This document shows positions 30,966-56,140 of a stretch of 64,000 nt of DNA, one piece after another. Every line of letters begins with the position of its first letter. Position 1 is the stretch's first letter. Origin of the DNA: an uncultured Bacteroidales bacterium (GTDB taxonomy: Bacteria; Bacteroidota; Bacteroidia; Bacteroidales; JAGOPY01); contig CAWBCI010000073.1 of the NCBI GenBank assembly GCA_963787195.1, positions 18,582-82,581 on the forward strand, given 5' to 3'. The position numbers and the translations under genes were made by a program. Under the pieces are notes generated by a model. That model was given only the letters and a program-made list of their open reading frames with translations, did not search any database and was not told the DNA's origin.

Positions 30966-32147
30966 CTATTCCTCTGCAAATAGATCCGAGGCTATTCCAT
31001 CGGCAAATAATTTGCCTTCATCCGTCAAATAATAAACTTCCGTTTTCTGAATGATCTGTCCTTTCTCAAGAAATTTTTGCACTCTGCTGCGGAAATGCTC
31101 ATAATAATCACTTCCGAAAGCATGCAAAATATGTTCCGGATCACAGCCCCAGCTTGTGCGCAGCGAGGTCATCACATATTCATTATAACGTTCGGCAAGC
31201 GTAAGTATCTCTTTTTCAAATCGTAAATTCGGGGAAGCATTTGGAACGATATAGGAATTGATGCCCGGCAAATTCCACTGTCTCGAAGAGCCGTTAAAGG
31301 AGTGGGCCGAGGGCCCCAGTCCAAGGTAATTGCCGCCCAGCCAGTAAAGACTGTTGTGTTTGGAATAATAGCCTTCCAGGCTGAAATTGGAAATCTCATA
31401 GTGGATATAGCCATGTTCCCTTGTTTGTTCCATCAGTATTTTGAATTGCTCCGCTGATTGAACTTCGTCGACGGGGGCCGCTTTTTTCTTGCGGATAAGG
31501 TGAAACAAGGCGGTTTTTTCTTCCACTGTCAAGGCATAGGCCGATAAATGGGGAATGTTGAGGCTGAAAAATTCGTTCAGGTTTTGCAGCCATTTCTCAT
31601 GGCTCAATGTCGGAATTCCATAGATTAAATCGATCGTAAGGTTTTCAAAACCGGCATCCCTCGCTATTTTTATAGCGTCTCTCGCCTGGGAAGCATTATG
31701 GACCCTGTTAAGGTAATGCAGGTCATCATCGAAAAAAGATTGTATCCCTATACTCAGGCGGTTTACCGGGGTATTTCTCAATTCAGTTGCTTTTTGAGGA
31801 CTCAGGTCATCGGGGTTGGCCTCCAGGGTGATCTCGGCTTTTTCGGATATATTGTGATAACGGCCAAGCTCTTCGAAAATGGAATTCAGTTCATTCGGAT
31901 TTAAAAGACTTGGGGTGCCTCCGCCCAGGTAAATTGTCTCGATTTTTTCTCCTCCCAGATAATCCTTTTGTTGCCCAATTTCATTCAACAGAGCCTTTAT
32001 GACTTCATCTTTCTGATTCAATGTGGCGACTGAAAAGAAGTTGCAGTAATGGCATTTCTGCCGGCAAAATGGGATATGGATATAAATACCTGCCATGATC
32101 AGGCAAAGGTATATACTTTGAGCAAAAAGCCCGACACGATCGTTCAA
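30966..32147 (-). CDS. hemW: Radical SAM heme chaperone HemW (HemN-like)
   Basis: IYIHIPFCRQKCHYCNF is the CxxxCxxC motif. The true start is probably the internal Met at about 32096 (MAGIYIHIPFC). Confidence 0.85.
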   Translation of the reverse strand: MNDRVGLFAQSIYLCLIMAGIYIHIPFCRQKCHYCNFFSVATLNQKDEVIKALLNEIGQQKDYLGGEKIETIYLGGGTPSLLNPNELNSIFEELGRYHNISEKAEITLEANPDDLSPQKATELRNTPVNRLSIGIQSFFDDDLHYLNRVHNASQARDAIKIARDAGFENLTIDLIYGIPTLSHEKWLQNLNEFFSLNIPHLSAYALTVEEKTALFHLIRKKKAAPVDEVQSAEQFKILMEQTREHGYIHYEISNFSLEGYYSKHNSLYWLGGNYLGLGPSAHSFNGSSRQWNLPGINSYIVPNASPNLRFEKEILTLAERYNEYVMTSLRTSWGCDPEHILHAFGSDYYEHFRSRVQKFLEKGQIIQKTEVYYLTDEGKLFADGIASDLFAEE

Positions 32148-32158
32148 GCTGCATCCAG

Positions 32159-32497
32159 TTATTCGTAGCCGCTCTTAATAACAGTCATAATCATTTTGAA
32201 GCGTCCGTTGGGCTTTACAATATTTGGGGCGTGGGCAGGTATTACAATAGATTCCCCGGTCAGCAATTCTTTCGGCACCCCATCGATAACAATTGTGGCT
32301 TTTCCATCAATGATCTCTACAAAAGTGTCGAAAGCTATGGTTTTTTCACTTAATCCCTGTCCGGCATCAAATGACATAACGATTATCTTTCCTGTTGATT
32401 TTTTCAGGATGGTTCTTATGGCTACGGAATTTGGCACATACCCGATAACATCTGCCGTAATATGCGCAATTGATTTTTTAATTTCATTTGTATCCAT
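32159..32497 (-). CDS. Cupin domain protein
   Basis: It is 112 aa and has the single-cupin pattern GESIVIPAHAPNIV. Confidence 0.65.
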   Translation of the reverse strand: MDTNEIKKSIAHITADVIGYVPNSVAIRTILKKSTGKIIVMSFDAGQGLSEKTIAFDTFVEIIDGKATIVIDGVPKELLTGESIVIPAHAPNIVKPNGRFKMIMTVIKSGYE

Positions 32498-32544
32498 AAT
32501 TCAAACCCTCCTGAATTTATCCCTAAAGCAGAGAAAATTATATA

Positions 32545-32653
32545 AGGCGGCATTCTTTTTCCGCCTTATTTAATTTCTTTTGTCGCTCAATCAGTATACT
32601 TTCCTGCTTAGACTTTGATATTCTTGCCAGATTAAGCATGGGGCAAAAATCTA
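32545..32653 (-). ncRNA. Candidate sRNA or 5' leader (sibling 1) ending in a hairpin with a U-rich tail
   Basis: It lies downstream of module U1. It ends at the hairpin AAGGCGG-AAAAAGAAT-GCCGCCTT followed by ATATAATTTT. Only a 33-codon ORF is present. Confidence 0.3.
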
Positions 32654-32659
32654 ACCTTA

Positions 32660-32729
32660 CAAAGGTGATACAAATCCTTTCTGAAATCATTACACAATTA
32701 AAGAAAAGAATTACAACATTCACATATTT
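32660..32729 (-). promoter_or_regulatory. 70-bp tripartite promoter module U1
   Basis: caaaggtg is at 32660-32667 (reverse complement CACCTTTG). TTACACAATT is at 32690-32699 and TTACAACATTCACATATTT at 32711-32729. The spacings are 30 and 21. Confidence 0.6.
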
Positions 32730-32856
32730 TAATCATGTAATAAACTAATATACAAAAAGATAAATAGCTTGCTAATAAAAATTATCACATTCAGGATTTT
32801 CGGGGTGGAGAATGAAAACACAATATTAAAATGGAAATTAGGGGATATTTTACTAT

Positions 32857-33060
32857 AAAAAAAGCCCTGCTGTTGGATTTTCAGCGGGGCTTGAATGGAA
32901 CGCTTAAACTACGCATTTTGGAACGCTTCTTTAACCTTGTCTTAATACATTATTTTTGTGAATAATTGACTTAAATAACCGGATTGGCAAGTCCGGAAAA
33001 AACTTCAATCTCAATTTACTTATTCAAATATTGTACGCTATAAATTGATGATTGAAAATC
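32857..33060 (-). ncRNA. Candidate sRNA (sibling 2), about 200 nt
   Basis: It runs from module U2 to the terminator AGCCCCGCTG-loop-CAGCAGGGCT plus U7 (32857-32891). The longest ATG ORF is 12 codons. CGUUCC occurs twice. Confidence 0.45.
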
Positions 33061-33066
33061 ATTTAG

Positions 33067-33136
33067 CAAAGATGGGACCTCAATTGTCAAAAATTATTAC
33101 ATAATTTTCGAAAAAATTTACATAATTCACACATTT
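33067..33136 (-). promoter_or_regulatory. 70-bp tripartite promoter module U2
   Basis: caaagatg is at 33067-33074, TTACATAATT at 33097-33106 and TTACATAATTCACACATTT at 33118-33136. Confidence 0.65.
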
Positions 33137-33196
33137 AAAAAACATAATTATTTATATAATTAATGAAAAATAAAATTAGCAGGATAAGGAAATTCC

Positions 33197-33324
33197 AAAA
33201 AAAGTCCCGCTATTAAGTTTTATTAGCGGGACTTAAATTAAACACATATACTCCCAAACCCATGAAAGCTTCTTTATTGATTATTTATTATTATCTATTC
33301 TAGATATTAATTGTGGAACGATTG
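33197..33324 (-). ncRNA. Candidate sRNA (sibling 3), about 130 nt
   Basis: It runs from module U3 to the terminator AGTCCCGCTA-loop-TAGCGGGACT plus U7 (33197-33233). The longest ORF is 16 codons. It shares AAAGAAGC(G/U)UUC and CGUUCC with sibling 2. Confidence 0.45.
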
Positions 33325-33330
33325 ATATTA

Positions 33331-33400
33331 CAAAGATGGGGTATCAAGCTCCCAAAAATCTTACATAATTTCTGAAAAAATTTACATAATTCACACATTT
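33331..33400 (-). promoter_or_regulatory. 70-bp tripartite promoter module U3
   Basis: caaagatg is at 33331-33338, TTACATAATT at 33361-33370 and TTACATAATTCACACATTT at 33382-33400. Confidence 0.65.
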
Positions 33401-33496
33401 ACAAATGATAAACTGTGTTTATAATTTAGGAATGAGCCCTTTAAGGCAATATTCATAAGGCACACATAGACTAAGAAGCAAATCATTGAAAATTTT

Positions 33497-33566
33497 TAAT
33501 GTGTGAATGATGTAACTTATTACTAAAGTTTTGTAACACTAATGGAGAACAGCTTATATAACTTTA
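33497..33566 (+). promoter_or_regulatory. 70-bp tripartite promoter module U4 (only + strand copy)
   Basis: TAATGTGTGAATGATGTAA is at 33497-33515, AGTTTTGTAA at 33527-33536 and TAACTTTA at 33559-33566. The ATG of the downstream gene is at 33631. Confidence 0.65.
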
Positions 33567-33630
33567 TGCCATAGTAGAAATTGATGAATCGCTGCCCCGC
33601 CAGATGCGGATATCATAAAAAATAAAATAA

Positions 33631-34707
33631 ATGCAAAAAGATAAATTAACAAAACTTGCATGCGCGAGAAGTAATCCCTGCGTGACTATTTCAATGAACA
33701 CACACCGTACATTTCCGGATAATCAGAAAGATGTGATAGAACTGAAAAAACTCAAGCTGGAGGCATATAAGCAGGTGAAGAATGAATTTGGACAATTTCC
33801 GCTGAGTGATCTGCTTGAAAAAATTGATGGTCTGGATGAGGAAATAGACATTAACTATAATTTGGAGAGCATACATATATTCCTGTCTGACTCGACAACT
33901 GAAATAATAAAATCATCGTGGCCAATACCGCAAAATATCGTTTCTGTTGCTGATAAATTTGTGATCAAACCATTGATCAAAGATTTTAACCGCATGGTAG
34001 AGTATCTTATCCTCTTGCTTTCTCAAACCGATGTGCGCTTATTACATGCCATTAATGACGGTATAGCCGAAGAAATAAAACCCGATGATTTTCCCTTTAC
34101 AACAAATCCGCATTTTACAGTTGAGGAGGATAAAGCCGGCAATGATCAGCATCTTGATAATAAATTTCTGGAATTTTATAATCAGATAGACAAAGCCCTT
34201 TTAAAAATTTACAACAAAAACAAGATGAAAGTTGTGGTGATAAGTACTGAACAGAACTGGAGCCACTTGATGCAGGTTGCTGACAAAGCATCAATTTATT
34301 ATGGGACCCTTAGCATTAACAACAAGGATTCGGCAAATCATTCAATCGCAGCAAATGCATGGAAAATCGTAAGTGCAATACAGGAAAAAGGAAGGGGCCA
34401 GGCTATTCAGGAAATGAAGGACGCTGCCGGACAAGGAAAGGTAATTACCGATTTGTCTGAAATGTACAGGGCTGTCAAAGAGGGAAGGGGTGATTTATTA
34501 ATTGTTCACGACGACTTTCACCAGGCCGTAAAAATGACCGGCGAATTGACATTCGATTTAGTAAGCGATCTCACTCAGCCGGAAGTGATAGATGATATTT
34601 CAAGCGATATGGCCTGGGAAGTCATTTCTAAAAAAGGCCGTGCAATATTTACGAATCAGGATGAGCTTAAATCGCTGGGAAACATTGCTTTAAAAGTCCG
34701 ATATTAG
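33631..34707 (+). CDS. baeRF-like (bacterial archaeo-eukaryotic release-factor-like) family protein
   Basis: The N-terminal PCVTISMNTHRTFPDNQKDVIELKKLKLEA resembles the VSIYxPTHR..Q..IRLKNL signature. The C-terminal GRGDLLIVHDD and the ending ALKVRY also fit. This call rests on recall, not a search. Confidence 0.45.
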   Translation: MQKDKLTKLACARSNPCVTISMNTHRTFPDNQKDVIELKKLKLEAYKQVKNEFGQFPLSDLLEKIDGLDEEIDINYNLESIHIFLSDSTTEIIKSSWPIPQNIVSVADKFVIKPLIKDFNRMVEYLILLLSQTDVRLLHAINDGIAEEIKPDDFPFTTNPHFTVEEDKAGNDQHLDNKFLEFYNQIDKALLKIYNKNKMKVVVISTEQNWSHLMQVADKASIYYGTLSINNKDSANHSIAANAWKIVSAIQEKGRGQAIQEMKDAAGQGKVITDLSEMYRAVKEGRGDLLIVHDDFHQAVKMTGELTFDLVSDLTQPEVIDDISSDMAWEVISKKGRAIFTNQDELKSLGNIALKVRY

Positions 34708-45753: not shown

Positions 45754-46479
45754 TCACAATTTAGGATTTTTCTTTTTGAGCAGAGGCTTGATTTTCAGCA
45801 AGGAGGGCATTGAGTCGCCTAATAGAAATCCCCAGGGTTTTAAGCTTTCTATATGATCGCAAATTAGTTTCACAATGACCGTTTTGGTCTGAGTTATTAT
45901 TTCACTCACCTGGCTTTGGTCGCTTTTACTAAAAATTCTGCGAATGAATTCAATCAGAATGGGATGGTAAAATAATATAAGGAAGATGTAAACAGGGATC
46001 AGGAACAAGATCACCAGTCCGTTCCCGATATTATAAAGCGTATGACCGAGTGCAGCTTTACCGGCATTGAAAATTTCTATCTTGGTTTTTGCTATCCAGT
46101 CTTCGATTATATGGTGATTCACATCGAAATAGCTTGATGCCCAGCTGACACCATCTTTGAAAAAGGTGCTGAACTTTTCAACGAGTATGGGCCAGGAATC
46201 GGCAAAACGGCTCGCCTGTGAAAATAAGAGCAGCCCGAAGGCGGCAAAAACCAGAATAGTGAGGATTAAAGTAATTATAATTGCAAGCAGCCTGTTTATC
46301 TTTTTATCTACAAAAAAATTTACAACGGGATGAAGTAAGATGGCAACGATTATGGCAAATATGAGGGGAACAATTATGGCCTGGGCAATATAAAGCGCTG
46401 CTATCAGGGCAACGATGCCTAAAAAAATAAGAGGCGCTTTTATATAGGCCGGTAATTTTAATTCTTTATCTGTACTCAC
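45754..46479 (-). pseudogene. AI-2E (PerM/UPF0118) family transporter, apparently truncated
   Basis: The first ~200 aa look like AI-2E N-terminal TM helices. The ORF ends at 241 aa with an atypical tail, and only ~125 bp remain before the next gene. Confidence 0.4.
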
Positions 46480-47869: not shown

Positions 47870-48400
47870 TTATTTCCTCTTTCCCTTGCTCCCGCCATGG
47901 CCCTTCTTTCCTTTCCGGTCATTATGATTGTTACGGGAATTCCTGTTATGGCCCTGATCATTATCTCTCCTGTGACGGTCATTGGAACGCATTTTTTGAC
48001 CATGGTGACCTCTCATAGGCCTTTCCCCGATGCTGTGCTGCACTGGTCCACGATAACCTCTGGAATACCGTGATTTATGATCCCTGAAATGTTGGTAAGG
48101 CTCGTTACCGCGATAATCCGTAATCACTACCTTATATCCGTCGTACAGATCATAATTCCTGTAACGGGATGGAAGATGAGAACGGTGTACCCAGTTTCCC
48201 CTGACATAATAAATGAACATGCTGGAATGGACATCATAATAAGCTTCAACATCGGGCAGGTAATAGAACCTGACATCGGAATAGCCTACAGGGCCCCAGA
48301 GTGGCGGCGAGCCTATGTTTACGCTTACTGAAACCTGCGCATGCATGGCACCTGCGAGAAAAAGCACAACTCCAACAAGAATTAATTTTAAACTTTTCAT
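47870..48400 (-). CDS. Secreted protein with basic His/Arg/Asn-rich tail, hypothetical
   Basis: It has a signal peptide and a Tyr-rich core. The tail is RGHHGQKMRSNDRHRRDNDQGHNRNSRNNHNDRKGKKGHGGSKGKRK. Confidence 0.55.
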   Translation of the reverse strand: MKSLKLILVGVVLFLAGAMHAQVSVSVNIGSPPLWGPVGYSDVRFYYLPDVEAYYDVHSSMFIYYVRGNWVHRSHLPSRYRNYDLYDGYKVVITDYRGNEPYQHFRDHKSRYSRGYRGPVQHSIGERPMRGHHGQKMRSNDRHRRDNDQGHNRNSRNNHNDRKGKKGHGGSKGKRK

Positions 48401-48425
48401 CTTTAATTATTTAATTTTTAGGGAG

Positions 48426-48495
48426 TAAAGGTGAGAAGTTTATGAGGGGAAAGTATTACACAATTAAATTAAAGACTTACATCATTCCCACATTT
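48426..48495 (-). promoter_or_regulatory. 70-bp tripartite promoter module U9
   Basis: taaaggtg is at 48426-48433, TTACACAATT at 48456-48465 and TTACATCATTCCCACATTT at 48477-48495. The downstream ATG is at 48400. Confidence 0.65.
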
Positions 48496-48534
48496 TTGTG
48501 GGATGAAACAAGCATAAGATGATGTGATTCCGGT

Positions 48535-48892
48535 AAAAAAAAGATGCCGGCACTAACTCAGTGCCGGCATCAGCCAGTCAAATGCTACGAAAAGGGACAT
48601 TGAACCCTTAATGATACCTGAATCAGGATGATGCAGGCAGTGGAGGGGGGTATTAAAATGTAAGGAACATTGGAACTTACCGGCATGGTATTACGGATGG
48701 GGGGAATTATGCCGGTAAGGATGTCAGCAATTTAATTCTGCTGATACCTGCCCCTGTATAATGGATATTAGGCATTAAATTTGAAGTTAATAAAATGTCT
48801 GCCATTTTAGTTTCAAAGAACTCATCAGCCTCCTAAATTTGCCTGTCAGCGGACATCCCGGATAAAAGACAATAGGAGATTCTCATAAATTA
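48535..48892 (-). ncRNA. Candidate structured ncRNA or micropeptide locus, unit A (about 360 nt)
   Basis: It runs from module U10 to the terminator GATGCCGGCAC-loop-GTGCCGGCATC plus U8 (48535-48571). No ORF exceeds 35 codons. The internal 11-bp hairpin at 48676-48719 has the loop core CCAUCCGUAAUA. Confidence 0.4.
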
Positions 48893-48898
48893 TTATGA

Positions 48899-48968
48899 CG
48901 AAGATCGTGACCTTTAGTAGAAAATGCATTATATAATTCTTGAAAAAGTTTACATAATTCACACATTA
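48899..48968 (-). promoter_or_regulatory. 70-bp tripartite promoter module U10
   Basis: cgaagatc is at 48899-48906 (a weak -7-like box). TTATATAATT is at 48929-48938 and TTACATAATTCACACATTA at 48950-48968. Confidence 0.55.
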
Positions 48969-49011
48969 TTAAATGGGGATGTGTTTTATAATGAAGAAGA
49001 ATGTGTTTTAT

Positions 49012-49429
49012 ATAAAAGAAAGATGCCAGCACCTGTAAGATGCTGGCATTAGCCGGTTTTGCTGTGAAAGGGGGCAATGACAATTGTGAAAGAATTCAGC
49101 ATCAGTACGATGCTGATACCGGCTGATTAACATTAACGAAAGGGCCGTTGACCGAATCGGCAATGACATCCGTACGATGCTGATGCCTGACGGTATTCGG
49201 CTGAGGAAAGGGCGTACTACCTACCGGCACATTATTACGGATGGTGAAAATTGCGCCGCTTAGGATAAAAGCACCAGATGTGTGCCTTCTTTTGCCCCTG
49301 TTCCATGATGAATAATGGCAATGACTTTTACATTTTTAAATCCTTGCCAATAAATTTTCAAAGAACACATTAGAAATCAAAAAACTAGTTTGAGCAATTG
49401 AATTTTTTTTCATCTGCTTTGAAAGCAGG
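49012..49429 (-). ncRNA. Candidate structured ncRNA or micropeptide locus, unit B (about 420 nt)
   Basis: It runs from module U11 to the terminator GATGCCAGCA-loop-TGCTGGCAT with a U-rich tail (49014-49049). The first ORF is only 25 codons. The hairpin at 49220-49264 has the same loop core as unit A. Confidence 0.4.
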
Positions 49430-49435
49430 AAAAGA

Positions 49436-49505
49436 CAAAGTTCGCGCTCCAGGTCAAAGAATTTATTACATAATTTCAGAAAAGATTTACATAATTCACA
49501 CATTT
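49436..49505 (-). promoter_or_regulatory. 70-bp tripartite promoter module U11
   Basis: caaagttc is at 49436-49443, TTACATAATT at 49466-49475 and TTACATAATTCACACATTT at 49487-49505. Confidence 0.6.
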
Positions 49506-49543
49506 ATGAAATTGTATTTATAAGGATTTTGATGTCTTTAAAA

Positions 49544-51379
49544 TTATTGATAATGGATCGGGGCAGGCTTTCCGATAATATAATCCCCTATTATGAAATC
49601 GTTGGTCCTGAAGGAGTTTACTTTAAAAACATTCTCTCCTTTACCGGGTATTACGGGGTAAAAGGCAAGAGAAAGCTGAAATGTACTGAAGACCAGGTAG
49701 TCGTTTTTGATCAGGATTCCAACACCTATTTTTGCGTATACTTTGCTGTTTTTAAATCCTGTTTCCCTATCACTCAGCATACCAATCGAACAGCTTATAA
49801 ATGGACCGAAACGAAAGCCGATAAAATTCCAGGGGGCATAGGCTTGCGATTGCATCGTAAATATCATGCGGCTGTTACCTGATAAAGAAGGGCTGTTAAA
49901 TCCATCCAGACCATAACCATCATTGAGTGTAAGGCTATCGTAAGAAAGCCTGTTTATGCCTAAGATTAGCTGGGGTTTGACAAATTCCCTGAATTTCCAT
50001 TTTCCAATTTCCAGCAATCCCGTAAAATATATAATGTTTGCAGAAAATATTCCCTGCCTGGAATGTGATTGCCGGAAATAGGTCCCATACTCGAAATTGG
50101 AACTGAGATAACCCCAGGAATAATAATTGCCGAAAGCAACCCGGGCGCCTAAGTACAAACTTCCGGTATTATTTCTTTCCTGGTAACCGCCTGTCAGACT
50201 GAATACCTTCCCGATGGGGATATCTTCAATCAGACCAAAATTGAATATAAATTTATCCTGAACATATTTTCTTTGCGAGATCCCAATGCTTCCCAGGTAT
50301 AGATTTTCATTGGAATATAAGCTTGCTGTATCATACATCTCAACTGGCTTGTCCGTAAAACGGATTCTTATAAAACGGACGGCGGAAATAAAATTAGTTG
50401 TGCGCATATTTACCGTATTGCCTTTAAATAATTGAAAGGCATTACCCGCCCAATAATCCTGCACACTAAATTTATATTTCTGCATCAAATAAAGCGAATC
50501 GTTAATGTGGAGGGTATCCCTGCGGTATTCCTGTTTGATAAGTGCACCCGCCCCCCACTTCGCAAGTGGAGAAAAGAAAGGACGGTCAACGGATATACTT
50601 TCAGTAAAATTTCTGTGCTCATCAGTGCTATAATTCAGGGTACTGTTAATATAGGTGTCACGGATGTTAGGAATGAAATAATTGGTCGAGAAAGCATCTT
50701 CTCCGGTGGTATGTTGCCAGCTGTATATATTTCTGAATTCATGCCCAAGGCCTAAAAAATTCCCGTCAAGAATATTAAAAGCGATGCGTGAACCTGAAAC
50801 CACGACTTTTGGAATAATGCTCCAGGTATCTAATTCGCGTATGAAAATATCCACCGAGTCTGAATTTTTTGAAGTGGCAAGAATAAAAAATGAAACATCA
50901 CGAACATATGGCTGGCTGCGGACCAATCGTTCAGATTCTTTCACAAGCAATGAATCGAAGACCTGGTTTTGCCGTATGAGTAGCAAGTTCCGTATAGTTG
51001 AATGCTGTGACTTAATGTGCATTTTATTTCCGCCCCTCATTATGAAGTTTTGAGAGGATACTATGGTGTCGGCAATTGAATTGCCAAAAGGATCAAGGGT
51101 TACGATATTTATATGCCTGATAATCTTTCCTTCAAAAGCGCTATATGGCTTTCTTATCAGTTTTTTATAAGCTTTCTTTTTTTTGGAAGCGGATGCAGTT
51201 GGTTTGAAAACCATGCGGTACATGAACTGGGTAAACTTGCTTCGCCCCGAATAGGCTTCCAGATTCTCATAAAATTTCTCCGGATCTGCTTTCGTGGTAT
51301 CTTTTTGCGCAAACGCAAAATCACTTGCCAAAATTGAAAAAAAGAAAAATATGAGAATGGTTTTAAACCACATATGCAT
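49544..51379 (-). CDS. Omp85/BamA-TamA-like outer-membrane beta-barrel protein
   Basis: It has a signal peptide and a POTRA-like segment (GKIIRHINIVTLDPFG...RNLLLIRQNQVFD). The long Tyr/Gly/Asn-rich beta-barrel region ends in an aromatic residue. Confidence 0.5.
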   Translation of the reverse strand: MHMWFKTILIFFFFSILASDFAFAQKDTTKADPEKFYENLEAYSGRSKFTQFMYRMVFKPTASASKKKKAYKKLIRKPYSAFEGKIIRHINIVTLDPFGNSIADTIVSSQNFIMRGGNKMHIKSQHSTIRNLLLIRQNQVFDSLLVKESERLVRSQPYVRDVSFFILATSKNSDSVDIFIRELDTWSIIPKVVVSGSRIAFNILDGNFLGLGHEFRNIYSWQHTTGEDAFSTNYFIPNIRDTYINSTLNYSTDEHRNFTESISVDRPFFSPLAKWGAGALIKQEYRRDTLHINDSLYLMQKYKFSVQDYWAGNAFQLFKGNTVNMRTTNFISAVRFIRIRFTDKPVEMYDTASLYSNENLYLGSIGISQRKYVQDKFIFNFGLIEDIPIGKVFSLTGGYQERNNTGSLYLGARVAFGNYYSWGYLSSNFEYGTYFRQSHSRQGIFSANIIYFTGLLEIGKWKFREFVKPQLILGINRLSYDSLTLNDGYGLDGFNSPSLSGNSRMIFTMQSQAYAPWNFIGFRFGPFISCSIGMLSDRETGFKNSKVYAKIGVGILIKNDYLVFSTFQLSLAFYPVIPGKGENVFKVNSFRTNDFIIGDYIIGKPAPIHYQ

Positions 51380-55320: not shown

Positions 55321-55389
55321 CAAAGTTCGGATCTTAATTATGCAATGTGTTATATAATTACGGGAATCTTTTACATAATTCACACATTT
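55321..55389 (-). promoter_or_regulatory. 70-bp tripartite promoter module U13
   Basis: caaagttc is at 55321-55328, TTATATAATT at 55350-55359 and TTACATAATTCACACATTT at 55371-55389. Box 2 overlaps the stop codon of the AraC-family gene. Confidence 0.65.
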
Positions 55390-55940
55390 TCAAGTGTGTT
55401 CCTTTTCTTGTTTTTAAGCTTTTTGTAAAAGGTGGGGGTTAAGCCCGTGACTTTTTTAAACTGGTTAGACAGATGGGCTACACTGCTGTAATTCAGCATA
55501 TAGGATATTTCGGTAAGATTCAGCTCATCGTATAAAAGCAATTCTTTTACACGTTCAATTTTGTGGGCAATAATATATCTCTCAATGGTGATTCCTGTTA
55601 CTTCTGAAAAAAGATTGGACAGGTAAGTATAGTCATGATTGAGCTTTTCGCTGAGATAATTCGAAAAATTTGTTATTGGAAGATCTTCCGAATAGTGGAT
55701 CATCTCAATGATGATATTTTTAATTTTTTCTATCAGGATGGCTTTTTTGTCATCCATTAATTCAAGCCCTGATTTTAGTAATGAAACTTTTAATTGGCTG
55801 CGTTGCTCTGGTGTAATGGTTTCCTTAATATCAACCTGTCCCAGATCCACTACCCCGTAATGCAGGCCAAGTTTATCCAATTCCGACTTCACTACCATTT
55901 TGCAGCGAATACTAACCATGTATTTAATGTAAATTTTCAA
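55380..55940 (-). CDS. AraC/XylS-family transcriptional regulator with small N-terminal alpha/beta domain
   Basis: The C-terminal HTH_18 region is LSNLFSEVTGITIERYIIAHKIERVKELL...YSSVAHLSNQFKKVTGLTP. Confidence 0.8.
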   Translation of the reverse strand: MKIYIKYMVSIRCKMVVKSELDKLGLHYGVVDLGQVDIKETITPEQRSQLKVSLLKSGLELMDDKKAILIEKIKNIIIEMIHYSEDLPITNFSNYLSEKLNHDYTYLSNLFSEVTGITIERYIIAHKIERVKELLLYDELNLTEISYMLNYSSVAHLSNQFKKVTGLTPTFYKKLKNKKRNTLENV

Positions 55941-56091
55941 GGGAACCGCAGCTTTTGGCTTTTGAATTTAACTGAGCAGTAAAATCCTTTTGGCATACTA
56001 AAAATTAATCTATAAAAGTAATAAAAATATTTGATTATCAACTTTATTACTAATAAATGTTTCAACGACAGCGCCATAATCACTTGGATAT

Positions 56092-56140
56092 GACTGCCGA
56101 CTGCCGTCGTGTTGACTGCTGACTGCTGACTGCTGACTTA
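56092..56140. repeat. Heptamer tandem repeat GACTGC(C/T)
   Basis: The sequence is GACTGCC x2, GTCGTGTT, GACTGCT x3, then GACTTA. It is intergenic. Confidence 0.8.

Follow-up and report, generated by a model that had tools for sequence, protein, structure and literature searches.

Two candidate paralogous small RNAs behind copies of a shared promoter module in an uncultured Bacteroidales bacterium

Introduction

The biology of small RNAs (sRNAs) in Bacteroidota is a young field and, to our knowledge, the phylum has neither Hfq nor an established master regulator of the general stress response. In Proteobacteria, the pairs OmrA/OmrB and PrrF1/PrrF2 are adjacent duplicated sRNA genes that use the same regulator-dependent promoter within a pair and end at their own terminators; they are Hfq-dependent, conserved across genera and experimentally validated. 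Among the high-confidence intergenic sRNA candidates of Bacteroides thetaiotaomicron, 9 of the 11 tested were confirmed by Northern blot (PMC7366714). FopS is a 14-member paralogous sRNA family of Bacteroides whose consensus structure was, according to the paper describing it, deposited in Rfam (PMC11697453). The present work deals with a stretch of 64,000 nucleotides from an uncultured Bacteroidales bacterium (contig CAWBCI010000073.1, positions 18,582 to 82,581), the whole of which is referred to below as the window. Three tandem units on its - strand, numbered 1 to 3 and each headed by a copy of the same promoter module, lie upstream of a cupin-hemW operon, and two of them (units 2 and 3) are examined here as candidate paralogous sRNA genes.

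The window has a GC content of 41% and promoters of the Bacteroidota type. The three units are contained in a divergent intergenic region of 1.13 kb, free of open reading frames (ORFs), with cupin-hemW on one side and the baeRF_family3 gene on the other. An earlier reading of this DNA, made from the letters and a list of ORFs and hereafter called the sequence-only reading, had proposed that all three are sibling trans-acting sRNAs belonging to one regulon, and that unit 1 may double as a leader of the cupin gene.

Units 2 and 3

Units 2 and 3 would be independently transcribed non-coding sRNA genes of about 205 and 130 nt, respectively. We give an even chance to the reading that they are functional sRNAs of the regulon, probably base-pairing regulators, as judged from the sequence features described below. 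Each unit possesses a promoter of its own, recognized computationally as a full module copy with its -7 box. The module of unit 3 (33331..33400, - strand) has GAATTATGTAA as direct repeats with a spacing of 21 bp and CATCTTTG as its -7 box, the end of which is at 33331, and reaches a score of 64.4 with a weight matrix derived from the aligned module copies. That of unit 2 (33067..33136, - strand) scores 68.0. These are the two top scores of the set, and the two modules are 82% identical over 78 nt (64/78). On the basis of the -7 boxes, the predicted transcript of unit 3 would start at A33326 and cover 33197..33326 (- strand, about 130 nt, GC 29%), while that of unit 2 would start at A33062 and cover 32857..33062 (- strand, about 205 nt, GC 33%).

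Both units finish with a Rho-independent terminator located on the same strand. The terminator of unit 3 (33197-33234, - strand) is an inverted repeat with a GC-rich stem of 11 bp followed by U7 (folding energy, dG, of -17.8 kcal/mol), and that of unit 2 (32857-32892, - strand) consists of a 10-bp stem with one mismatch and U7 (dG -14.9 kcal/mol). A simple terminator scan did not report this strong pair, the loops being longer than 8 nt; a separate census covering both strands of the 64 kb found 13 distinct strong hairpin-plus-U6 sites, the terminators of units 2 and 3 among them. For any one promoter, a comparable terminator would be met in the 250 nt downstream with a probability of about 0.025, and both units show this arrangement. 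Only the divergent baeRF promoter lies upstream on the - strand, so that the terminators have only module-driven transcripts to terminate.

The kinship of the two units is apparent from a local alignment of their bodies, which scores 37 versus 19.2 +/- 2.6 for controls (z 6.95; 0/300 dinucleotide shuffles). The similarity resides in a shared 3' domain of about 85 nt with 55 of 85 columns identical. In both units this domain consists of UAAAGAAGC(G/U)UUC, a linker (32-33 nt) and the terminator; the unit 2 copy, with UAAAGAAGCGUUC and a linker of about 30 nt, is at 32857-32937 (- strand), and the unit 3 copy is at 33197-33280 (- strand). A block of 13 nt is kept between the two units amid otherwise diverged sequence. 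The 5' parts, of 45 and 125 nt, are unrelated. According to RNAalifold, the terminator is the sole structure in common, and two pairs of its stem have changed on both sides yet are still paired. Units 2 and 3 can thus be fairly read, from sequence comparison, as paralogous non-coding units of the regulon, and to this extent the sibling relationship claimed in the sequence-only reading is supported.

The short words which that reading had listed as common to units 2 and 3 were retrieved, with one correction. The element UAAAGAAGC(G/U)UUC does begin 41-42 nt upstream of the terminator stem in both units, and CGUUCC has two occurrences in unit 2 and a single one in unit 3, as claimed. The word UUUAAG, said to stand directly before the stem in both, does so in unit 3 only: in unit 2 it is found 14 nt upstream of the stem, and UUCAAG occupies the position equivalent to the UUUAAG of unit 3. 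In unit 3, the longer word CGUUCCA is located at nt 9-15 and appears single-stranded; in unit 2, AAGCGUUCCA is present twice, 23 nt apart.

The coding capacity of both units is very limited. The longest ORFs starting with ATG have 12 codons in unit 2 and 16 codons in unit 3, where the ORF runs into the terminator, and unit 2 also contains a 27-codon ORF starting with TTG. The units might nevertheless be genes for tiny proteins of 11-16 residues, such as MGLGVYVFNLSPANKT for unit 3 and, for unit 2, MIFNHQFIAYNI or MRSLSVPFKPR, given that ATG ORFs are present in both and that several other module-driven units of the same region encode small proteins of 51-96 residues. We consider this very improbable. 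No reading frame or peptide is common to the two paralogues, in a comparison that rests on two sequences, and the ORFs overlapping the shared 3' domain differ in frame between the copies and enter the terminator stems, which makes a shared peptide unlikely. In addition, the whole intergenic region was compared using tblastx to every collected locus, and only the promoter modules were matched. A decayed-gene (pseudogene) origin of the units was rejected on this same result.

Unit 1

Unit 1 starts with the cupin-hemW promoter, a module copy at 32660..32729 (- strand) with a matrix score of 59.7 that belongs to the repeat family with 67% identity. Its body (32498..32655, - strand, about 155 nt) does not resemble unit 2 or unit 3 (z -1.3), and its fold z-score of -1.6 is unexceptional. 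The body continues into the start codon of the cupin gene, and unit 1 is for this reason taken as the promoter and leader of cupin-hemW. On its sequence, then, unit 1 is not a third sibling, and on this point the sequence-only reading is not supported; the candidate siblings are units 2 and 3 (z 6.95 and the two compensated pairs).

The leader contains a hairpin (32544-32568, - strand; dG -13.1 kcal/mol) followed by AUAUAAUUUUC, a poor U-tract, and 47 nt separate this hairpin from the cupin ATG, exactly as had been stated. An upstream ORF of 33 codons (32538-32639, MLNLARISKSKQESILIERQKKLNKAEKECRLI), without Pfam match, crosses the hairpin, its stop codon lying in the U-rich tail. Such a layout would allow translation-dependent attenuation of cupin-hemW. 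The fold energies of the three hairpins and the ORF listing also agree with the other descriptions of the sequence-only reading: GC-rich hairpins with a U-run at the ends of units 2 and 3, a weaker one in unit 1, and longest ATG ORFs of 12, 16 and 33 codons in units 2, 3 and 1.

The properties of unit 1 bring up a cis-acting role for the entire region, in which the three units would form one composite cupin-hemW leader with stacked promoters and conditional terminators acting as attenuators or in a riboswitch-like manner. All three units are indeed co-oriented directly upstream of the operon, and the unit 1 hairpin, with its U-rich tail shortly before the ATG and the upstream ORF crossing it, would fit such a device. 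The terminators of units 2 and 3 are however strong, and inspection of the folds revealed no common anti-terminator alternative. No riboswitch or leader family was matched. Each unit has a complete promoter, so that read-through is not needed for expression of the operon, and the cupin orthologues of relatives have a leader of only about 25 nt. A composite leader is therefore regarded as improbable.

Second pair of units and weight of the evidence

A further pair of ORF-poor units, independent of units 2 and 3, is present in the same module-rich region (48530-49505, - strand). One has its module at 49451-49505 and a strong terminator near 49022-49055 (about 415 nt), and the other has its module at 48914-48968 and a strong terminator near 48540-48575 (about 370 nt). 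The two are paralogous (z 13.7) over more than 250 nt with 72% column identity, and have several predicted hairpins in common, with 12 pairs that differ on both sides. No ORF is common to the two, the loci searched contained no homologue, and a permissive Rfam scan of 48400-49560 returned only noise. The occurrence in one regulon of two independent pairs that are gene-less and bounded by terminators makes an accidental origin less likely.

A number of observations weigh against a function of units 2 and 3 as sRNAs. The sequence-only reading had proposed to look for homologues in related genomes and for known families in Rfam, and both searches came back empty. No homologue of the bodies of units 2 and 3 was detected by blastn or nhmmer in 41 loci (8 from genomes, 7 from metagenomes, 11 around cupin homologues and 15 from IMG/VR) beyond the copies of the window itself, and an nhmmer profile of the shared 3' domain matched only the copies of units 2 and 3. 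The distance of the relatives makes this absence a weak argument against function: the nearest ones are 65-76% identical in protein, and an AT-rich intergenic RNA would be unrecognizable at this level. Rfam release 15 gave no family at gathering score across the whole window, and a permissive scan of 32400-33700 gave chance-level matches to unrelated families only, so that no family was matched to the units. Complements of CGUUCC, CGUUCCA, UAAAGAAGC and AAAGAAGC are absent near the start codons within the window, and duplex energies computed against its 57 start regions were no better than those of shuffled sRNA, with unrealistic duplex loops. The fold z-scores of -3.3 (unit 2) and -3.9 (unit 3) versus shuffled controls are mostly due to the terminator hairpins. 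With two sequences at hand, the shared 3' domain could merely reflect a fairly recent duplication. The module is, in the sampled relatives, nearly always located 5' of a protein-coding gene. Finally, the region has seen decay and rearrangement, as indicated by an ORF of 241 residues with a GTG start (45754-46479, - strand) that is probably a truncated AI-2E transporter gene: it covers positions 4-193 of a 327-position profile, and in relatives a full-length AI-2E transporter gene follows the cupin gene. Separately, viral contigs were scanned with a pattern of the shared 3' domain; the 10 matches obtained all lacked a terminator after them and were discarded as due to chance.

Several of these points would also suit units 2 and 3 being relics or insulators, that is, a duplicated cupin promoter region giving rise to functionless short transcripts, where the terminators would block read-in or the extra sites would buffer the regulator. 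The high identity of the two modules, which are 264 bp apart, is in line with this, as are the bodies without detectable homologue elsewhere, the use of the module for protein-coding genes in relatives and the decay seen at the AI-2E transporter gene. Against it stand the retention of two strong terminators with compensatory changes in their stems, the survival of the 13-nt block amid diverged sequence, the lack of resemblance of either body to the cupin leader or to coding sequence, and the second independent ORF-less pair of the regulon, which is hard to explain by accident. We hold relics or insulators to be rather unlikely, and the functional sRNA reading of units 2 and 3 is retained in what follows.

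Promoter module

A repeat search identified a family of 81-nt direct repeats at 32660-32740, 33067-33147 and 33331-33411, with spacings of 407 and 264 bp, which bears out the head-to-tail arrangement of the three modules on the - strand described in the sequence-only reading. The core 22-mer TGTGAATTATGTAAATTTTTTC has 6 matches in the window at up to 3 mismatches, versus 0.01 expected. Using the weight matrix, 13 module copies were located in the window, all of them between 32.7 and 55.4 kb and 12 of the 13 on the - strand. In the alignment of these copies, each has the direct repeats (T)GAATnATGTAA and GAATTGTGTAAT, with a distance of 21 bp between their starts, and a box nAnCTTTG about 26 nt beyond the repeats at a distance that is fixed among the copies. 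This box occupies the position of the sigma-A -7 element TAnnTTTG, which in Flavobacterium and Bacteroides spans -12 to -5 (PMC9723704; PMC7366714). With the box placed at -7, the proximal repeat comes to lie over the -33/-35 region, an arrangement that we infer to be that of a class II activator site. In class II sites of the AraC/XylS family, a pair of direct-repeat half-sites is spaced 21 bp, and the proximal half-site stands next to the -35/-33 element or in its place. We also considered that an alternative sigma factor of the extracytoplasmic function (ECF) type might use the module, and rejected this by inspection, as nAnCTTTG at -7 together with direct repeats fits activator-dependent sigma-A better.

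The module-rich region of the window (32675-55389) is referred to as the island. The genes located behind the 13 modules include those for YtxH, an lmo0937-family membrane protein, OmpA, DUF4382, MlaEFD and an ice-binding-like protein, as well as glycogen phosphorylase, transaldolase, RpiB, a B12-radical SAM enzyme, cupin-hemW and baeRF3. By their sequence annotation, they look like a stress or dormancy set. The copy driving baeRF_family3 is divergent (33497..33551, + strand, matrix score 56.8), and a module stands at the same place before the baeRF orthologues of loci L004, L007, L008 and L014, which belong to distant Bacteroidota. The module is likewise found upstream of the cupin orthologues in loci L016-L021, and 5' of small-protein genes and of a putative universal stress protein gene (the label being our own reading of the sequence) in L002, L003, L015 and L022. 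Altogether the module, of about 55 bp, was also observed in loci L002-L026 and L037-L041, and its carriers reach as far as Saprospiraceae and a Mariniphaga metagenome-assembled genome (MAG). The literature searched contains no description of the motif, of the regulon, or of an AraC-linked stress regulon in Bacteroidetes.

One of these loci deserves separate mention. At 465-720 of L012, from a distant relative, a module copy is followed by about 180 nt without ORF, then by a GCCCCGCTGGGGC hairpin with a U-run and, behind it, by elements of the ACAAACAGGTCG type that are repeated. The stretch may be a further module-driven unit without ORF, non-homologous to units 2 or 3.

Candidate activator

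A gene of the AraC type encoding an HTH_18 protein of 179 residues (Pfam HTH_18, 4e-17) is located at the edge of the island (55380-55919, - strand). The last codons of the gene, stop included (GAA AAT GTG TGA), are at the same time the 5' end of a module copy. An overlap of this kind also precedes the cupin gene in loci L016 and L019-L021, in which an HTH_18 gene of 125-186 residues ends exactly where the module of the cupin gene starts, and the protein of the window is 67% identical to the HTH_18 protein of L019 (5393-5911), encoded directly upstream of module and cupin. In view of this adjacency in relatives and of the copy in the window, the 179-residue protein is taken as the probable activator acting through the module, an assignment made from gene order and sequence. 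The features of an AraC/XylS-type promoter are thereby found together, with half-sites about 21 bp apart by the -35 region and a cognate AraC-family gene nearby. A short imperfect tandem repeat of heptamers (cagcagtcagcagtcagcagtcaac...ggcagtcggcagtca) was also noticed upstream of the HTH_18 gene, at about 56085-56140 on the - strand.

The proposed mechanism can be briefly summarized as follows. Each of units 2 and 3 would be driven by a conserved activator-dependent sigma-A promoter made of two 11-bp direct repeats with a spacing of 21 bp, the proximal repeat substituting for the -33 element and being followed by a weak -7 box. The HTH_18 protein (55380-55919) is the likely activator, and the same promoter would control the stress- or dormancy-like gene set. 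The pair of units probably originated by tandem duplication. Each RNA is predicted to end at its own strong intrinsic terminator and to display a common 3' domain, consisting of a single-stranded UAAAGAAGCNUUC, the linker and the terminator, behind 5' parts that differ. By analogy with the intergenic sRNAs of Bacteroides, the most likely mode of action of the RNAs would be base-pairing with mRNAs from other parts of the genome.

A broader proposal can be formulated on this basis, which we regard as possible though doubtful: many Bacteroidota would have a stress or dormancy regulon under a small AraC-type activator acting through the direct-repeat module of about 55 bp, and this lineage would have recruited to it two or more new non-coding RNA families, namely the unit 2/3 pair and the pair of about 370-415 nt at 48.5-49.5 kb. 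If true, these RNAs would constitute the post-transcriptional arm of a stress response in a phylum devoid of Hfq and, provided that they are real, sRNA regulation would be tied to a specific and widely conserved transcriptional programme of Bacteroidota. One uncultured genome is so far the only source of the unit 2 and unit 3 RNAs, and their immediate value is for this reason limited. The transferable part, with the wider reach, is the promoter module together with the putative regulator of the AraC type, both of which are present in many lineages.

Neighbouring genes and related assemblies

The cupin gene downstream of the three units (32159-32497, - strand) has a weak match to Pfam Cupin_2. 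It is followed on its 3' side by the hemW-like radical SAM gene (30966-32147, - strand; Pfam Radical_SAM and HemN_C). The baeRF_family3 gene (33631-34707, + strand) is divergent from the three units.

Locus L001 (CAVXTE010000033.1), from an uncultured Bacteroidales MAG, encodes a baeRF protein 100% identical to that of the window. This sole other assembly of the species breaks off at its position 1, which falls within baeRF, next to the intergenic region rich in modules. From the location of this end point, it seems that short-read assemblies are broken by the repeated modules. Apart from L001, the best match of baeRF among relatives is 65% identical and that of the cupin 76%. Exact-protein look-ups for strain variants, performed with the cupin, baeRF and hemW proteins, gave no further assembly holding the region.

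Comparison with known systems

With respect to its promoter, the system resembles the AraC/XylS family in that the half-sites of the modules in the window are 21 bp apart and an HTH_18 gene adjoins them in several genomes, binding of the regulator being predicted. It differs from that family in its short regulator of 179 residues, the N-terminal part of which has no Pfam match. The pairs OmrA/OmrB and PrrF1/PrrF2 share the tandem organization, but units 2 and 3 belong to another phylum, would depend on another type of regulator and are known from one genome.

Within Bacteroidota, units 2 and 3 are comparable to FopS (PMC11697453) as multicopy paralogous sRNA candidates ending in a terminator hairpin, whose co-regulation is here a prediction. 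The FopS copies are scattered and have a common 5' seed, whereas units 2 and 3 are in tandem and have a common 3' domain with differing 5' parts. No Rfam family matched the units, and the presence of a FopS model in Rfam release 15 is itself unconfirmed.

The closest likeness is to the intergenic sRNAs of B. thetaiotaomicron such as GibS (PMC7366714), with which units 2 and 3 share a promoter of their own with a Bacteroidota -7 box, a Rho-independent terminator, a length of 100-200 nt, a low GC content (about 35% in B. thetaiotaomicron, 29-33% in units 2 and 3) and a largely single-stranded 5' stretch. There is no sequence or Rfam relationship to the GibS-type sRNAs, and units 2 and 3 differ from these in using a specialized activator-dependent module shared with a stress-like regulon. 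Their layout nevertheless matches the definition of a "high-confidence intergenic sRNA" used for B. thetaiotaomicron (PMC7366714). Units 2 and 3 can accordingly be viewed as a credible addition to a known kind of sRNA rather than as a new kind of element.

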